Assembly: GCA_944368875.1 (NCBI GenBank)
Contig: CALVXF010000022.1
Location: forward strand, 217-64,216
Direction: 5' to 3'
Length of the DNA: 64,000 nt
Source of the DNA: an uncultured Bacilli bacterium
Lineage (GTDB): Bacteria > Bacillota_I > Bacilli_A > RF39 > UBA660
Position 1 is the first letter of the stretch; each line of letters starts with the position of its first letter. The translations under genes were made by a program, and so were the position numbers. Of this stretch, positions 1 to 59,127 are shown one piece after another. Under the pieces are notes generated by a model, which was given only the letters and a program-made list of their open reading frames with translations, did no database searches and was not told the DNA's origin.

Positions 1-40
1 ATTCAATTTTTAAAGAACTATACATTATAGTTTTGTTAAA

Positions 41-142
41 TTGGTCACGATAGCACAGAGGGTACACCTGTTCCCATCCCGAACACAGAAGTTAAGCTCT
101 GTTACGCTGAAAATAGTGTAAGCGAAGATAGGAAGTGGCCAA
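41..142 (+). rRNA. rrf: 5S ribosomal RNA (3' end of an rrn operon); boundaries approximate
   Basis: Sequence GGTCACGATAGCACAGAGGGTACACCTGTTCCCATCCCGAACACAGAAGTTAAGCTC matches the universally conserved 5S core (CCCGAACAC..GAAGTTAAGC). The terminal helix TGGTCAC/GTGGCCA pairs. A T-run follows. Confidence 0.75.
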
Positions 143-225
143 TTTTTTTTTGTCTTTTTTTAGTTATCGAAATTAAACAATTGCTATTTAGTTTAATTTT
201 TACTATAATAAAATAGGTGATGTAA

Positions 226-27423: not shown

Positions 27424-27509
27424 GCCGACCTGGCGGAATGGTAGACGCAGTGGATTCAAAATCCACCGATAGAGATATCATAAGGGTTCAAGTCCCTTGG
27501 TCGGTACCA
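27424..27509 (+). tRNA. tRNA-Leu (anticodon CAA), with encoded CCA
   Basis: Acceptor stem GCCGACC/GGTCGGT. Anticodon loop TTCAAAA. Long variable arm. T-loop GGTTCAAGTCC. Terminal ACCA. Confidence 0.9.
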
Positions 27510-50939: not shown

Positions 50940-52238
50940 ATGGAACAACAAGGATATGTTGATGAACATGGTGAAGTTATCAAATCCAAGGATTATCGTA
51001 AGAAATTAATTTTTATTGGTATCGGCGTAGGTTTAATTATCATTTTAACGATTATAATTATGATTGCGGTTAATATTTCACGTAATAAAAAATGTAATAG
51101 TATCGAAGATAGTTTTGCTGACGAAGTTTTAAAATATGCTGAAGATAATGATTTATTGCCAGATGCTTTAAGTGAAAGTGTTGAAATAAATGCATCAGAT
51201 TTATTAGATAATGGTTATTTGCAAGAAGGATTTACTTTCGATGAACAAACTTGTGGTGGTAAAGCTAAAATAACTTATGTTGATGGTGAATATGTTGTAA
51301 CTGTTGATGTTACTAATTGTGATAGATGTAGTGCTTCTTCAAGATATAGTGAGTGGAGCGATTGGCAAGAAAAATTGCCAAATAAACAAATTGTCGATGT
51401 TGAAGTGCGATATAATTATGTTGAAAAAACAACAAACTATACTGAATGGACAAATTATTATACACCTAAACAATTAACTAATAATCCAATTACTGATTAT
51501 ACTGATGATCGTTTTGTGACTATAAGTAAAGATGCTAAAAATATCGAAATTGTATCAGAGAATTTAACTTATTATCGTTATCGTGATAAGAGATGGAAAT
51601 TTTATCGCAATAATAATGCAGATTATTCAGATTTTTCTTCTGTTCAACCAAGTGGATATGCCAACAAAGATACAAGTACATCTCGTACAACAGAATGGAG
51701 TGAATGGAGTGTTAATGCACCTGAAGAAGCTTCATATCGTCGTATAGAAACGAAAACCGGATATCGTTGGTATTATGAAGAAGGTAAAGAGAAGATTTAT
51801 TATAATGGAGGTCAATATTTACCTGAAGCACCTGATGATAAATATACTGAAAGAGATAAAGATGATAAGGCAACTATTTATCGTTATCGTGATACTGAAT
51901 GGCGTTGGTATAACGGTGAAAAAAGAGGATATAGTTCATTCATGTCTGAAGCTACATCTACATACAAATACAAAGATGAAGGATTAGTAAGCTATAGCAA
52001 TTATTCTAGTTGGTCTACTACTTCTAAAGTAGATAGTTCAAATGATAATTATCGTGAAGAAGAAACTGAAATTCGAACACGTTATCGTTTGAAATATGAT
52101 TTATATTCTTATAATTTATTAAGCGAATCAGTATTGAAAGAGGGCTTTGCTAGTGCTACTGGAATGAGCTTAGAAGAAGTTTTAAATAATTCATCTTATG
52201 CTGTAGTTTTTGAATATAGATATAGATATAAAAAGTAA
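50940..52238 (+). CDS. membrane-anchored surface protein with aromatic W/Y-rich repeats
   Basis: N-terminal TM. Repeated YRYRD.(R/E)W(K/R)(F/W)Y and (S/T)EWS(D/E)W motifs. Start at MEQQGY after an AGGAG RBS. Confidence 0.5.
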   Translation: MEQQGYVDEHGEVIKSKDYRKKLIFIGIGVGLIIILTIIIMIAVNISRNKKCNSIEDSFADEVLKYAEDNDLLPDALSESVEINASDLLDNGYLQEGFTFDEQTCGGKAKITYVDGEYVVTVDVTNCDRCSASSRYSEWSDWQEKLPNKQIVDVEVRYNYVEKTTNYTEWTNYYTPKQLTNNPITDYTDDRFVTISKDAKNIEIVSENLTYYRYRDKRWKFYRNNNADYSDFSSVQPSGYANKDTSTSRTTEWSEWSVNAPEEASYRRIETKTGYRWYYEEGKEKIYYNGGQYLPEAPDDKYTERDKDDKATIYRYRDTEWRWYNGEKRGYSSFMSEATSTYKYKDEGLVSYSNYSSWSTTSKVDSSNDNYREEETEIRTRYRLKYDLYSYNLLSESVLKEGFASATGMSLEEVLNNSSYAVVFEYRYRYKK

Positions 52239-52892: not shown

Positions 52893-53969
52893 ATGGAATA
52901 TATAATTATTGGACTTCTAGTTTTAATTTTAATACTAGTTGTCATTTCTCTATATAAAAATATTAATGAATCTAATATCACGGAACGACTAGGAAAGTTA
53001 GAAACAACTGTTGTAAAGGAAATAGGACTTTTCAAAAGTGAATTTGCCAAAGAATTAAATGGTGATTTTAATAATTTAAATGAAAAAATTGAGGCCCGTT
53101 TACGTTTGATAAATGATCGTGTAAACGAAAGATTAGATGAAAATTTTGAAAAAACTAATAAAACTTTTACCAATGTTTTAGAAAGATTGAGTAAGATTGA
53201 CGAAGCTCAAAAAAAGATCGATGGTCTATCAACAGAAATTATTAGTCTACAAAATGTTTTGACTGATAAAAAAAGTCGCGGTATTTTTGGCGAAGTTAAT
53301 TTAAGACACATTATGAGTAGTGTTTTTGGTGAAAAAAATGATGAGATATATCGTTTACAATATACTTTTCCTAATGGTGTTATAGCTGATTGTGTTTTAT
53401 TTACGCCTGAACCTTTAGGAACGATTGCTATTGATTCAAAATTCCCTTTAGAAAATTACCGCAATATGGTAGATAAATCAAAAGATGATATGAATCGAGC
53501 CATGGCTTTAAAAGCATTTAAAAGTGATATGAAAAAACACATTGATGCGATTAGCAGCAAGTATATTATTCCTGGGATAACAAGTGATCAAGCAATTTTG
53601 TTTTTGCCAGCAGAAGCAATTTTTGCTGAATTGAATGCATATCATTCTGATATCATCGAATATGCTTATAAAAAACGTGTTTGGATAACTAGTCCCACTA
53701 CTTTAATTAGTACACTTACAACGATTGAAGTTATTATAAAAAATATGGAAAGAGATAAGTATGCAACGATTATTCATCAAGAGTTAAAACTTTTAGATGA
53801 AGAATTCCGTCGTTATAAAGAAAGATGGGATAAGTTATCACGTAGCATTGATACTGTTAGTCGTGATGTTAAAGAATTACATACGACTGGTGAAAAAATT
53901 ACTAAAAGATTTAATTCTATTAATCAAGTAGAAGTTGAAAAAATTAAAGGAGGAGATTTAGATGACTGA
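52893..53969 (+). CDS. rmuC: DNA recombination protein RmuC
   Basis: N-terminal TM followed by a coiled coil. Conserved IDSKFPLENY and FLPAEAIF motifs of the RmuC family. Confidence 0.75.
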   Translation: MEYIIIGLLVLILILVVISLYKNINESNITERLGKLETTVVKEIGLFKSEFAKELNGDFNNLNEKIEARLRLINDRVNERLDENFEKTNKTFTNVLERLSKIDEAQKKIDGLSTEIISLQNVLTDKKSRGIFGEVNLRHIMSSVFGEKNDEIYRLQYTFPNGVIADCVLFTPEPLGTIAIDSKFPLENYRNMVDKSKDDMNRAMALKAFKSDMKKHIDAISSKYIIPGITSDQAILFLPAEAIFAELNAYHSDIIEYAYKKRVWITSPTTLISTLTTIEVIIKNMERDKYATIIHQELKLLDEEFRRYKERWDKLSRSIDTVSRDVKELHTTGEKITKRFNSINQVEVEKIKGGDLDD

Positions 53970-54288
53970 GGAAGAATTAAAAAGATTACAAAAAGAAAGA
54001 GAAGAGTTGCAAATTGGAGATAATTTAGGTAAATTTGTAAATGATCCTAAAATACCAAATCCCCAAGCTGAAATGTTAAAAAATTCGAGTGACCCATATG
54101 TTCAAAGTCTATTTGGAGAACAAGTTAAAGATGAAGGTTTAACGCTTAATGATCCGAAGAAAAAAGTATTAAAACAACCAAATCATCATCATAGCAATAG
54201 TGCATTTACTGATATGTGGTTTCTAGGAATTTTAACTTTAATTTTAGAACCTCTAATGATTTTTTTGGTATATCTATTTATTAAGTAG
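53962..54288 (+). CDS. hypothetical tail-anchored small protein
   Basis: Soluble charged N-region followed by a C-terminal TM. Overlaps the rmuC end. Terminator GTAGG..CCTAC plus T-run at 54286..54308. Confidence 0.4.
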   Translation: MTEEELKRLQKEREELQIGDNLGKFVNDPKIPNPQAEMLKNSSDPYVQSLFGEQVKDEGLTLNDPKKKVLKQPNHHHSNSAFTDMWFLGILTLILEPLMIFLVYLFIK

Positions 54289-54378
54289 GCGAAACCTACT
54301 TTTTTTGTTGTAAATATATGTAAAAATGATATCTTTTTATAGATATTTGTTTTATAATTAAAATAGAGGTGTAGTAGT

Positions 54379-56487
54379 ATGCAAGAAAAAATTTTAGCCA
54401 TTTTAAAAAAAGAACAAAAAGCACTATCTGCTCAAGAAATATATGATTTACTTGAACTAAATAGTGTTGATGATTTAAAAAACCTATTAAAAGAATTGCA
54501 AGTATTAGAAGAAAATTTACAAATATATCGTACTAAAAAAGACAACTATATGTTATTTACAAATAGTCATTTAAAATTAGGTAAAATGATTGCCAATAAA
54601 AAAGGTTTTGGTTTTGTCGATATTGAAGGTGATGAAGATGTTTTTATTGCTCCTTCAAATATTAATGGTGCGATTCATGGTGATCAAGTAGTTGTTGAAA
54701 TCACATCTAAAAAAGGTATGGATTTAGAAGGTCGTATTGTCAGGGTTGTAAATCGCGATTTAAAACAACTAGTTGGGGAATACTATACTAAAGATGGTAT
54801 GGGCTATATTAAATTAGATGATGAAAAAGTTAAACTGTTGGTTTCGATTAAACTTGAAAATAGTTTAGGCGCGATGGATGGCCATAAAGTTTTAGTAAAA
54901 ATCGGCAATAAAATTAAAGATAACAATTATGAAGGAGAAGTTGTACGTATTTTAGGCCATAAAAATGACCCAGGTGTTGATATCTTAAGTATTGTTGCTA
55001 AATATGGAATAAATGATACTTTTAGTGAAAAAGTAATGGATGAAGTAGAAGTCTTACCAAATGAAGTTAGTTTAGAAGAAATAAAAGATCGTAAAGATTT
55101 ACGTGACCATATGATTTTTACAATTGATGGTGATGATACTAAAGATATTGATGATGCGATAGAATTAAATAAATTAGAAAATGGCAATTATCTTTTGGGT
55201 GTGCATATTGCTGATGTAAGTTATTATGTTAAAGAAAATACGGAAATTGATAAAGAAGCGTATGACCGTGGTACAAGTGTTTATCTAGCTGATCGTGTTA
55301 TACCGATGTTGCCACATAAATTATCTAACGGAATATGTTCCTTAAATCCCAATGTTGATCGTCTTTCTGTATCATGTGTTATGGAAATAAATAATAAAGG
55401 AGATATTTTAAAAGCAGAAATTTTTCCTAGTGTTATAAAATCTAGAAAACAGATGACTTATAAAAATGTCAATAGTATTTTAGAACAAAATATTATTCCT
55501 GAAGGATATGAAGAATATGCGGATAAATTAAAAGAAATGCATGCATTAGCGCATATTTTAAGAGAGAACAAAATGCGTCGTGGATATATTGATTTTGATA
55601 TTGATGAATCTAAAATAATTGTTAATGAAGACGGTAAAGCTATTGATGTTGTACTTCGCAATCGTGGTGAAGGTGAAAAATTAATTGAAGATTTCATGAT
55701 TGCGGCCAATGAAGCTGTAGCTACCTACATATATATGATGGATCTACCATTTGTCTATCGTGTTCATGGCAAACCAGATGAAGAGAAAATAACTAATTTT
55801 ATTAAATTTATCGGCATGTTAGGCTATCGTGTTAGTACTAGAATTAATGATATAACTCCTAAAGCAATGCAAAAAATATTAGAGGAATTAAATGATAAAA
55901 AAGAATTTCATATTTTATCTAAGTTATTACTTAGAAGTATGCAAAAAGCTGTCTATGATCCAACAAATATAGGGCATTTTGGGATTGCTAGTAAATGCTA
56001 TACTCATTTTACTTCGCCAATTAGAAGATATCCGGATACTACAGTTCATCGCTTACTTAGAACCTATTTATTTGAAAATAAAATGGGGGTGGATACTATT
56101 CGATATTGGGAACAAAAACTACCTTTTTTAACAGAACATGCTTCCAATAAAGAAAGAGATTCGATTGAATGTGAACGCGAAGTAGATGACATGAAAAAAG
56201 CAGAATATATGATGGACCATATAGGTGATAGATATACTGGAATTATTAGTAGTGTTTTAACATTTGGTTTTTTTGTTGAACTACCAAATTTAGTTGAAGG
56301 TCTTGTTCGCATTGATGATTTACCAGGCAATAGTAGATATATTTATGATGAGACAACTTTCTCAATAAGGAGTAATCAAGATAAACGTGGTTATCGTTTA
56401 GGAGATGAAGTTAATGTTATTGTAAAAGATGCTAATAAAGCAAATAAAACAGTTGATTTTATTATTGATACTAAAGAAGAAAAATAA
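54379..56487 (+). CDS. rnr: ribonuclease R (RNB-family 3'-5' exoribonuclease), copy 1
   Basis: Winged-helix N-terminus, cold-shock domains, RNB catalytic motifs ([29 protein letters not shown]) and C-terminal S1 with a K-rich tail. Confidence 0.85.
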   Translation: MQEKILAILKKEQKALSAQEIYDLLELNSVDDLKNLLKELQVLEENLQIYRTKKDNYMLFTNSHLKLGKMIANKKGFGFVDIEGDEDVFIAPSNINGAIHGDQVVVEITSKKGMDLEGRIVRVVNRDLKQLVGEYYTKDGMGYIKLDDEKVKLLVSIKLENSLGAMDGHKVLVKIGNKIKDNNYEGEVVRILGHKNDPGVDILSIVAKYGINDTFSEKVMDEVEVLPNEVSLEEIKDRKDLRDHMIFTIDGDDTKDIDDAIELNKLENGNYLLGVHIADVSYYVKENTEIDKEAYDRGTSVYLADRVIPMLPHKLSNGICSLNPNVDRLSVSCVMEINNKGDILKAEIFPSVIKSRKQMTYKNVNSILEQNIIPEGYEEYADKLKEMHALAHILRENKMRRGYIDFDIDESKIIVNEDGKAIDVVLRNRGEGEKLIEDFMIAANEAVATYIYMMDLPFVYRVHGKPDEEKITNFIKFIGMLGYRVSTRINDITPKAMQKILEELNDKKEFHILSKLLLRSMQKAVYDPTNIGHFGIASKCYTHFTSPIRRYPDTTVHRLLRTYLFENKMGVDTIRYWEQKLPFLTEHASNKERDSIECEREVDDMKKAEYMMDHIGDRYTGIISSVLTFGFFVELPNLVEGLVRIDDLPGNSRYIYDETTFSIRSNQDKRGYRLGDEVNVIVKDANKANKTVDFIIDTKEEK

Positions 56488-56561
56488 TCTTCTTTTTTTC
56501 TTGTTTTTGCTAGTAATTAATAATGTTTTATTTTATAATATATATGTGAGAGGGAATATAT

Positions 56562-58715
56562 ATGGAAAACATTTGTGGAAAAATCATAAAAATACTTAAT
56601 AAAAAGGGGATTGTAACAACTAAACAACTATATGATAACTTAAGAGTCGCTAGTGTTGATACTATATCTTTTAAAGATTTAAATGATGCTCTAGCAATTT
56701 TAGAAAGAGAGTTTAAAATTGTTTTAACACGTGATGGTTATTATGAATTATTAGAAACAAAAAACAAAAAAGTAGGGCGCCTTTTAATGCATGAGAAAGG
56801 ATATGGCTTTGTTTCTTTAGAAGATGGCAATGATATTTTTATACCAGCTAATAAATTACATAATTGTATTCATAATGACATTGTTTTAGTTAGAACTAAA
56901 GAATGCAATGGTAAATGTGAAGGTATTATTGAAAAACGCCTAGCACGTAATCAAGATATATTAGTTGGGGAAGTTAAAATTATTGATGGTAAAGAATATG
57001 TGATACCTGATAATCAAAAATATAAAATCAAGGTCCAATTTGTAAATCCTGGCAATATTGTACCAGGGCATAAAGTTACTTTTAAATTATCTGGTGAAGT
57101 ACATGAAGATATTCTAACTGGTAAAATAGAAGAAGTAATTGGTCATAAAAATGAACCAGGGGTAGATATTTTAAGTGTTATCAAAGAATACAATGTTCCT
57201 GTTGAATTTTCCGAAGAAGCTTTAAAAGAACTTCAAAATATTCCTATGAGTGTTACAGAAGACGAGATTAATGATCGCCTTGATTTACGCGATAAATTAA
57301 TTTTTACTATAGATGGTGATGATACCAAAGATATCGATGATGCAATATCGTTGGAAATAAAAGATAATGGTAATTATTTGCTAGGTGGACATATTGCTGA
57401 TGTTAGCTATTATGTAAGACCTGGTAGTGAACTTGATAAAGAAGCTAGGGCAAGAGGAACAAGCAATTATTTAGCTGATAGGGTGATACCTATGTTACCA
57501 CCGGAATTATCTAATGGGATATGTTCCCTAAACCCAAATGTTGATCGTTTAGCATTATCATTTTTTATCGAAATTGCTAAAAATGGTGAAATTGTTGATT
57601 TTGATATTGCTGAATCAGTTATACGTTCTAGAAAACAGATGACTTATAAAAATGTTAATAGTATTTTAGAACAAAATATTATTCCCAAGGGATATGAAGA
57701 ATATGTTCCTATTTTAAAACAAATGCAAGAATTAGCGCATATTTTAAGAGAAAAAAGAGAAATTAATGGCAATTTAGATTTTGATATCGATGAAGTAAAA
57801 ATCAAAGTTGATGAAAAAGGTAAAGCAGTTGGAATTGGTCCAAGACAACGAGGTGAAGGTGAAAAATTAATTGAGGATTTTATGATTGCGATAAATGAAG
57901 GAACAGCTGAATATGCTAGCAATCTTGATCTTCCATTTATATATCGTGTTCATGGTTTACCTCGTCAAGAAAAAGTAGAACAAATTATTCATAAACTAGC
58001 TGGTTTAGAATATGATGCGTTAAAAATATTACGCTCTAATTGTATAAAACATCCTAAAGAGATGCAAAAATTATTAGATGATTTAAAAAAACGAAATGAT
58101 TCTAAAGTAGTTCTATCGCATGTTTTACGTTCAGTAAAAAAAGCAGAGTATTCTGATGAAAACACTGGACATTTCGCTTTGGCTTCAAAAGCATATTCCC
58201 ATCTAACTTCACCAATTAGAAGATATCCTGATTTAGAAAATCATCGTATTTTAAAAAGTATTGTCATATATAATCATTATGAATATGAAGTTATTCAAAA
58301 AATAACAAGAGAAGTATCGGAGTTAGCGCCTTATCTTTCAGGCCGTGAAAAAATCGCTCAAGATTTAGAACGTGAAGTTGACAAAATGAAAATGGCAGAA
58401 TATATGAAATCTTTTATAGGTCAAGAGTTTGATGGTTTGATTTCAGATATTTTACCTAAAGGTCTTTATGTTCAATTGCCTAATTTAGTTGAAGGACGTA
58501 TCAATTTAGACGGACATAATGGTAAAATTATTTTCAACAATGAGACTTATACTTTATCTGATTTAAATCGTGGATTAATATATAAATTGGGGATGCCTGT
58601 CAAAGTAAAATTAATTGAAGCCTCAAAAGAAAGACATACAATTGATTTCGAACTAGTTGATGATAAGCCAAAAGTAAAGGAGTTAAAACATGGAAATTCT
58701 AAACAAAAAGGCTAA
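56562..58715 (+). CDS. ribonuclease R / RNase II-family paralogue, copy 2
   Basis: Same domain series and RNB motifs as copy 1. A 24-aa stretch [20 protein letters not shown] is identical to the one in copy 1. Confidence 0.85.
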
Positions 58716-59127
58716 TTATGACTATAATATAGAAGATACTATCGAAGCAGGTATTGTTTTAGTTGGAACAGAAATTAAAGCTATTAGAGAAGGACGTGCT
58801 AATTTAAAAGATAGTTATGCAATTGTTAAAAATAATGAAGTATACTTACTTAATATGCACATTAGTCAATATAAAGAAGGCAATCAATTTAACCATGATG
58901 AAAAAAGAACACGAAAATTATTACTTCATAAAAAAGAAATTAAAAAGTTACAAAACAAATTAGAAATAGAAGGTTATACTTTAGTACCTTTAAAATTATA
59001 TTTTATTAAAAATAGAGCCAAAATATTATTAGGAGTTGCTAAGGGTAAGAAAAATTATGATAAAAGGGAGACTATAAAAAAACGTGATGAAATGCGTGAA
59101 GCTCGTAAAATGTTAAAAGGGAATTGA
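58690..59127 (+). CDS. smpB: SsrA-binding protein SmpB
   Basis: Conserved NKKA.YDY..E..EAGIVL.GTEIK N-terminus. Conserved rnr-smpB linkage. Confidence 0.9.

Follow-up and report, generated by a model that had tools for sequence, protein, structure and literature searches.

In most Firmicutes, RNase R is the sole exoribonuclease of the RNB family, with links to trans-translation as well as to ribosome quality control. Bacillus and Streptococcus have its gene in rnr-smpB(-ssrA) operons (PMC12320835), a second RNB enzyme is missing from Firmicutes such as S. aureus (PMC8406268), and one multifunctional RNase R serves the Mollicutes (PMC4014445). In the E. coli enzyme, a K/R-rich tail mediates association with SmpB, tmRNA and the ribosome (PMC12320835), while a tri-helix wedge, residues 487-545, serves RNA unwinding (PMC5714204). 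No description of tandem or duplicated bacterial RNase R genes was found in the literature searched, which is not proof of their absence. Here we analyze such a pair, rnrA (copy A) and rnrB (copy B), lying head-to-tail ahead of smpB in a stretch of 64,000 nucleotides with a GC content of 29%, referred to as the window, from an uncultured member of a group labelled Bacilli or Mycoplasmatota-like. Copy A is a canonical RNase R, copy B a fast-evolving paralogue of restricted distribution, into which a patch of 40-59 nt, and perhaps a second one of about 12 nt, was probably copied from A by gene conversion, in the absence of any gene-wide homogenization. The coordinates of all features are collected in the table below.

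Both genes are full-length, as an earlier note on this DNA had claimed from the sequence alone, and both encode the four Pfam domains of the family, in the order OB_RNB (CSD1)-CSD2-RNB-S1, the S1 domain of B being marginal (22.6 bits for a cutoff of 22). Both are bona fide members of the RNase R family: they pass the equivalog model TIGR02063 (cutoff 597.85 bits) with 810.9 bits for A and 658.5 for B, and fail the RNase II equivalogs TIGR02062 and NF003455 (cutoffs 641.9 and 542), with 204 and 237 bits for A and 199 and 233 for B. Judged by these profiles, B is an RNase R-type paralogue, and the RNase II-like half of a functional split, proposed in the earlier note, has to be abandoned. Among solved structures, A is closest to 8cdu, the RNase R of B. 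subtilis (693 bits), and next to 5xgu, that of E. coli; the Mycoplasma genitalium RNase R (7dcy) is also among the structure matches. Catalytic motif I, with its four Asp residues (DxxxxxDxDD), is kept as the same ten-residue sequence, and motif IV, TSPIRRYPD, with the SPIRRY Arg, is intact, in the two copies of the window species, hereafter A_win and B_win, and in B_L001, the B copy of a sister species. From these motifs, the catalytic core of B appears to be retained and exoribonuclease activity is predicted.

The two copies share 47% of their amino acids and 60% of their nucleotides in a codon-aware alignment and differ in N-termini and C-terminal tails, an overall divergence that had been correctly noticed before. 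As anticipated, identity is not uniform along the genes: the RNB core forms a broad plateau of 70-77% nucleotide identity, with a peak at 55444-55560. Within this peak, near-identity had been claimed for 120 nt. Over that length there are 13 mismatches (89% identity), and the claim holds only for the first 59 nt, which contain a single mismatch and two exact runs of 29 nt, with A positions translating into B positions by an offset of 2186. A 25-residue peptide is common to A and B in this region. Among 11 A/B pairings, a length of 59 nt is reached by the cognate pair of the window only, the others ranging from 24 to 50. When the amino acid alignment is held fixed and synonymous codons are redrawn from the codon usage of the window itself, a 59-nt segment with at most one mismatch arises anywhere in the gene with a probability of about 4e-4.

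Most of the similarity of the tract, and all of it in a second, 13-residue block (the GEGEK block), is nevertheless the product of purifying selection and AT-biased codon usage. A motif opening with S[RK] and continuing for 24 residues is conserved at the tract: every close A orthologue has it, as do, for the most part, the other B copies, and K, N, E, Q and Y are encoded there by their dominant codons. The GEGEK block is indeed nearly identical at the DNA level, as had been observed, but it is equally similar between genes of different genomes (35 nt with at most one mismatch, at 55669-55703, between the A copy of the sister species, A_L001, and B_win), and thus reflects constraint rather than conversion. 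The similar antisense open reading frames (ORFs) pointed out over these tracts do resemble each other, as a trivial by-product of sense-strand similarity; they were rejected as genes, since the antisense frame over the tract is interrupted by 1-7 stop codons in most orthologues.

A different pattern is found in part of the first tract. Over its 57-nt core, a single site separates A_win from B_win, compared with 6 sites between A_win and A_L001 and 10 between B_win and B_L001; similarly, in the segment starting at 55435, the two window copies are 4 sites apart, versus 7 and 10 for the orthologue pairs. Between 55450 and 55491, B_win differs from both other B lineages compared (B_L001 and B_L088) at about 6 nt, every one of which shows the A_win state. 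In the patch, B_win reads CAG, AGT (Ser), CAA (Gln) and AAT (Asn), against CAA, AAA (Lys), GAA (Glu) and GAA or GGA in B_L001 and B_L088, and the rare codon CAG is unique to A_win and B_win. B-type sequence resumes on either side, with CGT at 57624-57626 (A 55438) and CCC AAG from 57684 (A 55498). As for the direction of the change, 82 A-type orthologues indicate Lys, Glu and Lys as the ancestral residues at the diagnostic positions, and B_L001 and B_L088 carry exactly these; Ser366, Gln370 and Glu396, the last replacing an ancestral Lys, are derived in the A_win subclade and, among B copies, are found in B_win only. About 12 nt at 55555-55566, which include the codon for residue 396, might form a second patch: here B_win is like A (Ile, AGA, Glu), while B_L001 and B_L088 have CTT, CGT and AAA.

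Triplet recombination tests (3SEQ-like, with permutation, on all sites) point in the same direction, the best donor being the cognate A in all three B lineages. With B_win as child and B_L088 as major parent, a patch at 55473-55564 was detected with the cognate A at P=0.0004 and less strongly with non-cognate ones (P=0.11 for A_L002); with B_L001 as child and B_L088 as major parent, a patch at 55263-55368 gave P=0.006, against 0.39-0.88 for non-cognate donors; with B_L088 as child and B_L001 as major parent, a patch at 55493-55523 gave P=0.0002, against 0.01-0.05.

Several observations weigh against conversion. Third-position-only tests were not significant (P=0.08-0.5); synonymous sites are saturated under AT bias, with a proportion of synonymous differences (pS) of about 0.5 in every comparison, so that such tests have little power. 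A longest-run permutation in the style of Sawyer and GENECONV was rejected as decisive because it is confounded by constraint: on all sites it called cognate and non-cognate pairs significant alike, and on third positions neither. In an independent clade with tandem genes (L045, L058, L067 and L024) no cognate-specific triplet signal was found, and a non-cognate control reached P=0.003, showing the triplet test to be somewhat anti-conservative. The codon-usage null is itself lenient, since perfect matches of up to 41 nt occur between non-cognate genes too, at the catalytic Asp motif. Moreover, B lacks a GTC that is specific to A_win and lies within the patch, and the sole outgroup B (L002) is cut by a contig end at residue 320, just before the tract, so that polarity rests on outgroups of the A family; when the C-terminal half of B was used to search for an outgroup B covering the tract, A-type fragments filled the matches listed, among which B itself did not appear.

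The tract could, in principle, have arisen with no conversion at all, by purifying selection on a conserved RNB segment combined with extreme codon bias, if B_win retained ancestral A-like states and the stem of B_L001 and B_L088 diverged. The maintenance of the motif across all A orthologues, B_L001 and B_L088, a codon homozygosity per amino acid of 0.75-0.88 for K, N, E, Q, Y, D and F, the silence of third positions and the long non-cognate runs elsewhere are all in keeping with this, and several of the differences of B_L001 within the tract are changes specific to B_L001. Such an account, however, calls for three reversions on the stem of B_L001 and B_L088, each to exactly the residue that is ancestral for the family, and for a parallel synonymous change from CAA to the rare CAG in A_win and B_win. 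It must also accommodate that B_win, the most A-divergent B overall, is nearly unchanged over 57 nt in which other B copies lie 10-11 sites from A_win, and the low probability obtained under the codon-usage null, and it leaves the cognate-specific signals of three lineages unexplained. We therefore regard it as rather unlikely, though it is the most serious competitor, and consider short-patch conversion from A to B the probable origin of the patch. The conversion suspected in the earlier note is accordingly retained for a part of the first tract, 40-59 nt rather than 120, and dropped for the GEGEK block. Its further suggestion, that the pair is kept partly homogenized, is contradicted by the site patterns of gene-wide quartets, 378 of which support orthology, 26 concerted evolution and 21 the control grouping: gene-wide concerted evolution of A and B is absent.

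The copies evolve in markedly different ways. Synonymous divergence between species (dS) is alike, about 0.83 for A and 0.86 for B, while the ratio of non-synonymous to synonymous divergence (dN/dS) is 0.07-0.10 for A and 0.13-0.24 for B, or in summary about 0.09 versus 0.23, the protein of B evolving about 2.5 times faster; B is thus a functional gene, under relaxed yet clearly purifying selection. The acceleration is unevenly spread. Between A_win and B_win, 199 of 328 residues are identical in the RNB domain, versus 20 of 59 in the helix-turn-helix (HTH), 19 of 55 in CSD1, 25 of 72 in CSD2, 27 of 77 in S1 and 17 of 59 in the wedge, one of the most diverged parts of B, where B also carries a 3-residue insertion. 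Similarly, dN/dS of B is highest in the wedge (0.47), followed by CSD1 (0.33) and S1 (0.31). The wedge maps by alignment to residues 464-522 of A_win; a location of the high-identity tract (residues 355-380) inside it was considered and rejected.

B-type genes were found only in the window species, in L001/L008 (the sister MAG, or metagenome-assembled genome, being uncultured Bacilli bacterium BRZ_KF__bin17), in L002, an 81% species whose B is the truncated one, and in L088/L089, always in the layout rmuC-ORF108-rnrA-rnrB-smpB, which in L001/L008 is identical to that of the window. In a collection of 5.8 billion proteins, the B-type entries were P0121, P0122 and P0123 only, with P0122 (73% identity) and P0123 as the two other relatives, all further matches being A-type and at most 49% identical. 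A heads a deep series of orthologues, at 87, 81, 73 and about 70-71% identity; most of them come from MAGs, and some bear the label 'Bacilli bacterium'. The 3' end of rnrB overlaps the start of smpB over 26 nt, as rnr does in single-copy relatives such as L010, and the ending of B, TIDFELV, resembles the single-copy TIDFEVV; because B keeps this ancestral overlap and TIDFE[LV]V-type ending, the pair would have come from a local duplication.

Alternatively, B might be a distant RNase R that was acquired horizontally and landed between rnr and smpB, with family-level conservation behind the similarity of its core to A. B is, in fact, about as distant from its neighbor as from the other A-type proteins of the clade (44-49% identity), it falls outside the A clade on a long branch in a neighbor-joining (NJ) tree, and the donor could be an unsampled relative, a point that detracts from local duplication. 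On the other hand, long-branch placement is the expected outcome of fast evolution, no closer relative emerged from the protein collection, the retained smpB junction and C-terminal ending would have to be accounted for, and other extra copies in tandem mirror the phylogeny of their partner A, as local duplication followed by acceleration predicts. A horizontal origin appears improbable, and local duplication is preferred. That the mosaic patch is a chimeric joining of paralogues in a metagenome assembly, as may happen when a de Bruijn assembler meets paralogues in a MAG like that of the window, has a negligible probability, since B is identical (0 mismatches over 2154 nt) in three further independent assemblies from different samples, the tract is present in seven cluster members from separate assemblies, with the same protein sequence save for a single R-to-K change in one, and B-specific flanks within 60 nt would require a double switch shorter than typical k-mers.

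Putting these elements together, rnr would have been duplicated in tandem, in situ ahead of smpB, in the ancestor of a small low-GC gut group. The upstream copy remained a canonical, slowly evolving RNase R, while the downstream one, which held the ancestral overlapping smpB junction, accelerated, above all in its RNA-handling parts (HTH, CSD1, S1 and the unwinding wedge), keeping the catalytic core and gaining a short basic tail. As for the mechanism of conversion, we infer that, after the split from the sister species, 40-59 nt of A were copied into B by homologous recombination, and possibly about 12 nt more; the conserved RNB core may alone provide enough local identity for a RecA-type heteroduplex, and hence for occasional micro-conversions.

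A duplicated pair is unusual, as had been surmised: among 80 species-representative loci of related gut MAGs, 69 have a single rnr beside smpB, in line with Firmicutes normally lacking a second RNB enzyme (PMC8406268). The comparison with related genomes also revealed two adjacent RNB genes in the remaining 11 (about 14%: L008, L023, L024, L032, L033, L035, L045, L058, L063, L067 and L085), the divergent copy preceding the canonical one in 7 and following it in 4, which implies several independent duplications. In the NJ tree, the extra copies all lie on long branches outside the canonical clade, where they form several groups; in one of these, the branching mirrors that of the partner A copies. 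This topology indicates several local duplications followed by acceleration, some of the placements being possible long-branch artefacts.

Some of these extra genes have features of their own. In the upstream copies of L032, L033, L045, L058, L063, L067 and L024, motif IV reads TSPIRR[A/S/G]GD, where TSPIRRYPD is otherwise nearly universal, and HFAL..S.CQVTSP replaces HFG....YTHFTSP, which may reflect an altered active-site geometry. The paralogues between rnrA and smpB at L005:8180-10303 (the same as L023:6159-8291) and L085:6102-8252 are about 34% identical to A and B_win and have DGKDSKDFDD or DGDSSKDFDD as motif I; they cluster in the NJ tree though their partner A copies are not close relatives, a grouping that could be due to long-branch attraction or to transfer. 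In L088 (4149-6253) and L089 (1003-3098), rnrB carries a frameshifting 34-nt deletion in the wedge region, leaving a 491-aa ORF and a separate 148-aa ORF containing S1. Both samples, which are independent, show the same lesion (1 mismatch in 2096 nt), and the sequence 3' of it is still about 84% identical to B_L001. The gene is either recently pseudogenized or split; B is dispensable enough for a frameshift in one lineage. L003 and L006 have no second RNB gene at the junction. There, a PGA_cap gene (PF09587) occupies the slot of rnrB (L003:8203-11149, L006:8210-9334), together, in L003, with a 602-aa polytopic membrane protein, which was evaluated as a degenerate B and rejected as unrelated. 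The rnr-smpB junction appears to be a recurrent point of insertion or rearrangement.

The post-S1 tails of the two copies are both short and differ in charge. The tail of A, IIDTKEEK, has a net charge of -1 and no K/R-rich extension; that of B, 21 residues with 6 Lys, has a net charge of +2 and a Lys-rich stretch of 18 residues, and does not come near the E. coli extension in length. The extra copies of all 12 tandem pairs end in a short Lys/Arg-rich tail, more basic than that of the canonical partner: net charges range from 0 to +6 in extra copies and from 0 to -5 in canonical partners, single-copy relatives spanning -4 to +5. Compared with all A copies, the difference is significant by the Mann-Whitney test (P=1e-5), but only about 4-5 independent groups are involved. 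The recurrence of duplication and the consistent asymmetry of tail charge, the most promising leads of this analysis, suggest selection rather than accident.

A functional split of some kind is plausible from where B has diverged and from its basic tail. What division of labor we infer is a good deal more speculative: RNase R would have been duplicated repeatedly, in at least four to five lineages (11 of 80 species), and its functions partitioned, an acidic-tailed A attending to bulk and structured-RNA decay and a fast-evolving B acting as a ribosome- or trans-translation-associated nuclease, whose core is kept intact by micro-conversion from A. Under this tentative and rather doubtful scheme, the remodelled wedge, CSD1 and S1 of B, its basic tail and, in the window, its translational coupling to smpB would all be part of the specialization. 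In any case, a pair ahead of smpB offers a natural experiment on the parts of RNase R that set substrate choice and association with the ribosome and SmpB, and the patch illustrates how ectopic conversion may act between paralogues diverged by about 40%, where conserved motifs provide local identity. Current understanding is unchanged by these results; annotation is refined, as both genes would without them carry the plain name 'ribonuclease R'.

Upstream of rnrA lie rmuC and a conserved 108-aa ORF, and an ORF of 98-108 aa occupies the same syntenic slot in L001, L002, L005, L006 and L088. A hairpin 3' of the 108-aa ORF probably marks, on the consensus scan, the start of a separate rnrA-rnrB-smpB transcription unit. 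The three genes would be co-transcribed; the same scan gave no terminator-like site from A through B to smpB. In the A-B spacer, no promoter-like site was seen at a 9-of-12 threshold. The promoter scan returned 34 matches, versus 37 expected from shuffled sequence, and no promoter is claimed. No tmRNA gene (ssrA) was detected across the 64-kb window, whose arrangement thus differs from the rnr-smpB-ssrA of B. subtilis. Further upstream, a 435-aa ORF has syntenic counterparts of 431-433 aa in relatives, with no Pfam match on record.

Table. Position of the features discussed, in window coordinates (aa, amino acids; RBS, ribosome-binding site)
Feature	Position	Strand	Remarks
5S rRNA	40-144		Very start of the window
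tRNA	27424-27506		One gene
435-aa ORF	50931-52238		N-terminal membrane segment; repeated YRYRD..W / Y..W..W motifs
108-aa ORF	53962-54288		8-nt overlap with the end of rmuC; no Pfam match
Terminator-like hairpin, then T-run	54283-54301	+	3' of the 108-aa ORF; consensus scan only
rnrA (copy A), canonical RNase R	54379-56487	+	702 aa; intact ORF, TIGR02063 match
High-identity patch, A (putative donor) side	55441-55499	+	59 nt, 1 mismatch to B; proposed minimal converted core 55450-55491
GEGEK block, A	55666-55704	+	B equivalent 57852-57890; 39 nt, 2 mismatches
Post-S1 tail, A	56464-56487		
A-B spacer	56488-56561	+	74 nt, AT-rich; RBS-like GAGAGGG ahead of the B start codon
rnrB (copy B), divergent lineage-restricted RNase R paralogue	56562-58715	+	717 aa; intact ORF
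High-identity patch, B (putative recipient) side	57627-57685	+	A_win states inside, B-type states on both flanks
Possible second micro-patch in B	57741-57752	+	ATT TTA AGA GAA, corresponding to A 55555-55566
Wedge-homologous region, B	57954-58139	+	A equivalent 55768-55944; mapped by sequence alignment only
Post-S1 tail, B	58653-58715		
smpB	58690-59127	+	145 aa; PF01668, 200 bits

Compared with described bacterial RNase R genes (rnr/vacB, such as that of B. subtilis and those of the Bacillus and Streptococcus operons), the locus shares the CSD1-CSD2-RNB-S1 architecture, the DxxxxxDxDD and SPIRRY motifs and a position immediately 5' of smpB, and copy A is an ordinary orthologue. It departs from them in having two tandem copies, in the accessory domains and wedge of B, only about 30-35% identical to those of A, and in the length of both proteins, which, at about 700 aa, do not have the K/R-rich stretch that extends the C-terminus of the E. 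coli and B. subtilis enzymes at length. In Mycoplasma genitalium, of a related low-GC lineage with a reduced genome, RNase R is the sole exoribonuclease and takes on many RNA-processing roles (PMC4014445). Mollicutes have a single specialized copy, while in the lineage of the window the gene has been duplicated. With the RNase II-RNase R pair of E. coli and other Proteobacteria, the window shares the presence of two RNB 3'-5' exoribonucleases in one genome, presumably acting on different substrates (PMC12320835, PMC8406268). The wedge of B, however, is longer than that of A, while that of RNase II is shortened (PMC5714204). B is, moreover, not an RNase II orthologue, and the window pair is young, lineage-specific and arranged in tandem.

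Ectopic conversion between paralogues is itself already well known, the concerted evolution of tufA and tufB being a case of ectopic gene conversion between duplicated bacterial genes. As in tufA/tufB, the pattern seen here is that expected of non-reciprocal copying between paralogues of one genome, in which, along part of their length, the paralogues resemble each other more than either resembles its orthologue. Unlike tufA and tufB, A and B are about 40% diverged at the DNA level and not homogenized, and the signal is confined to patches of at most about 60 nt within the conserved core.

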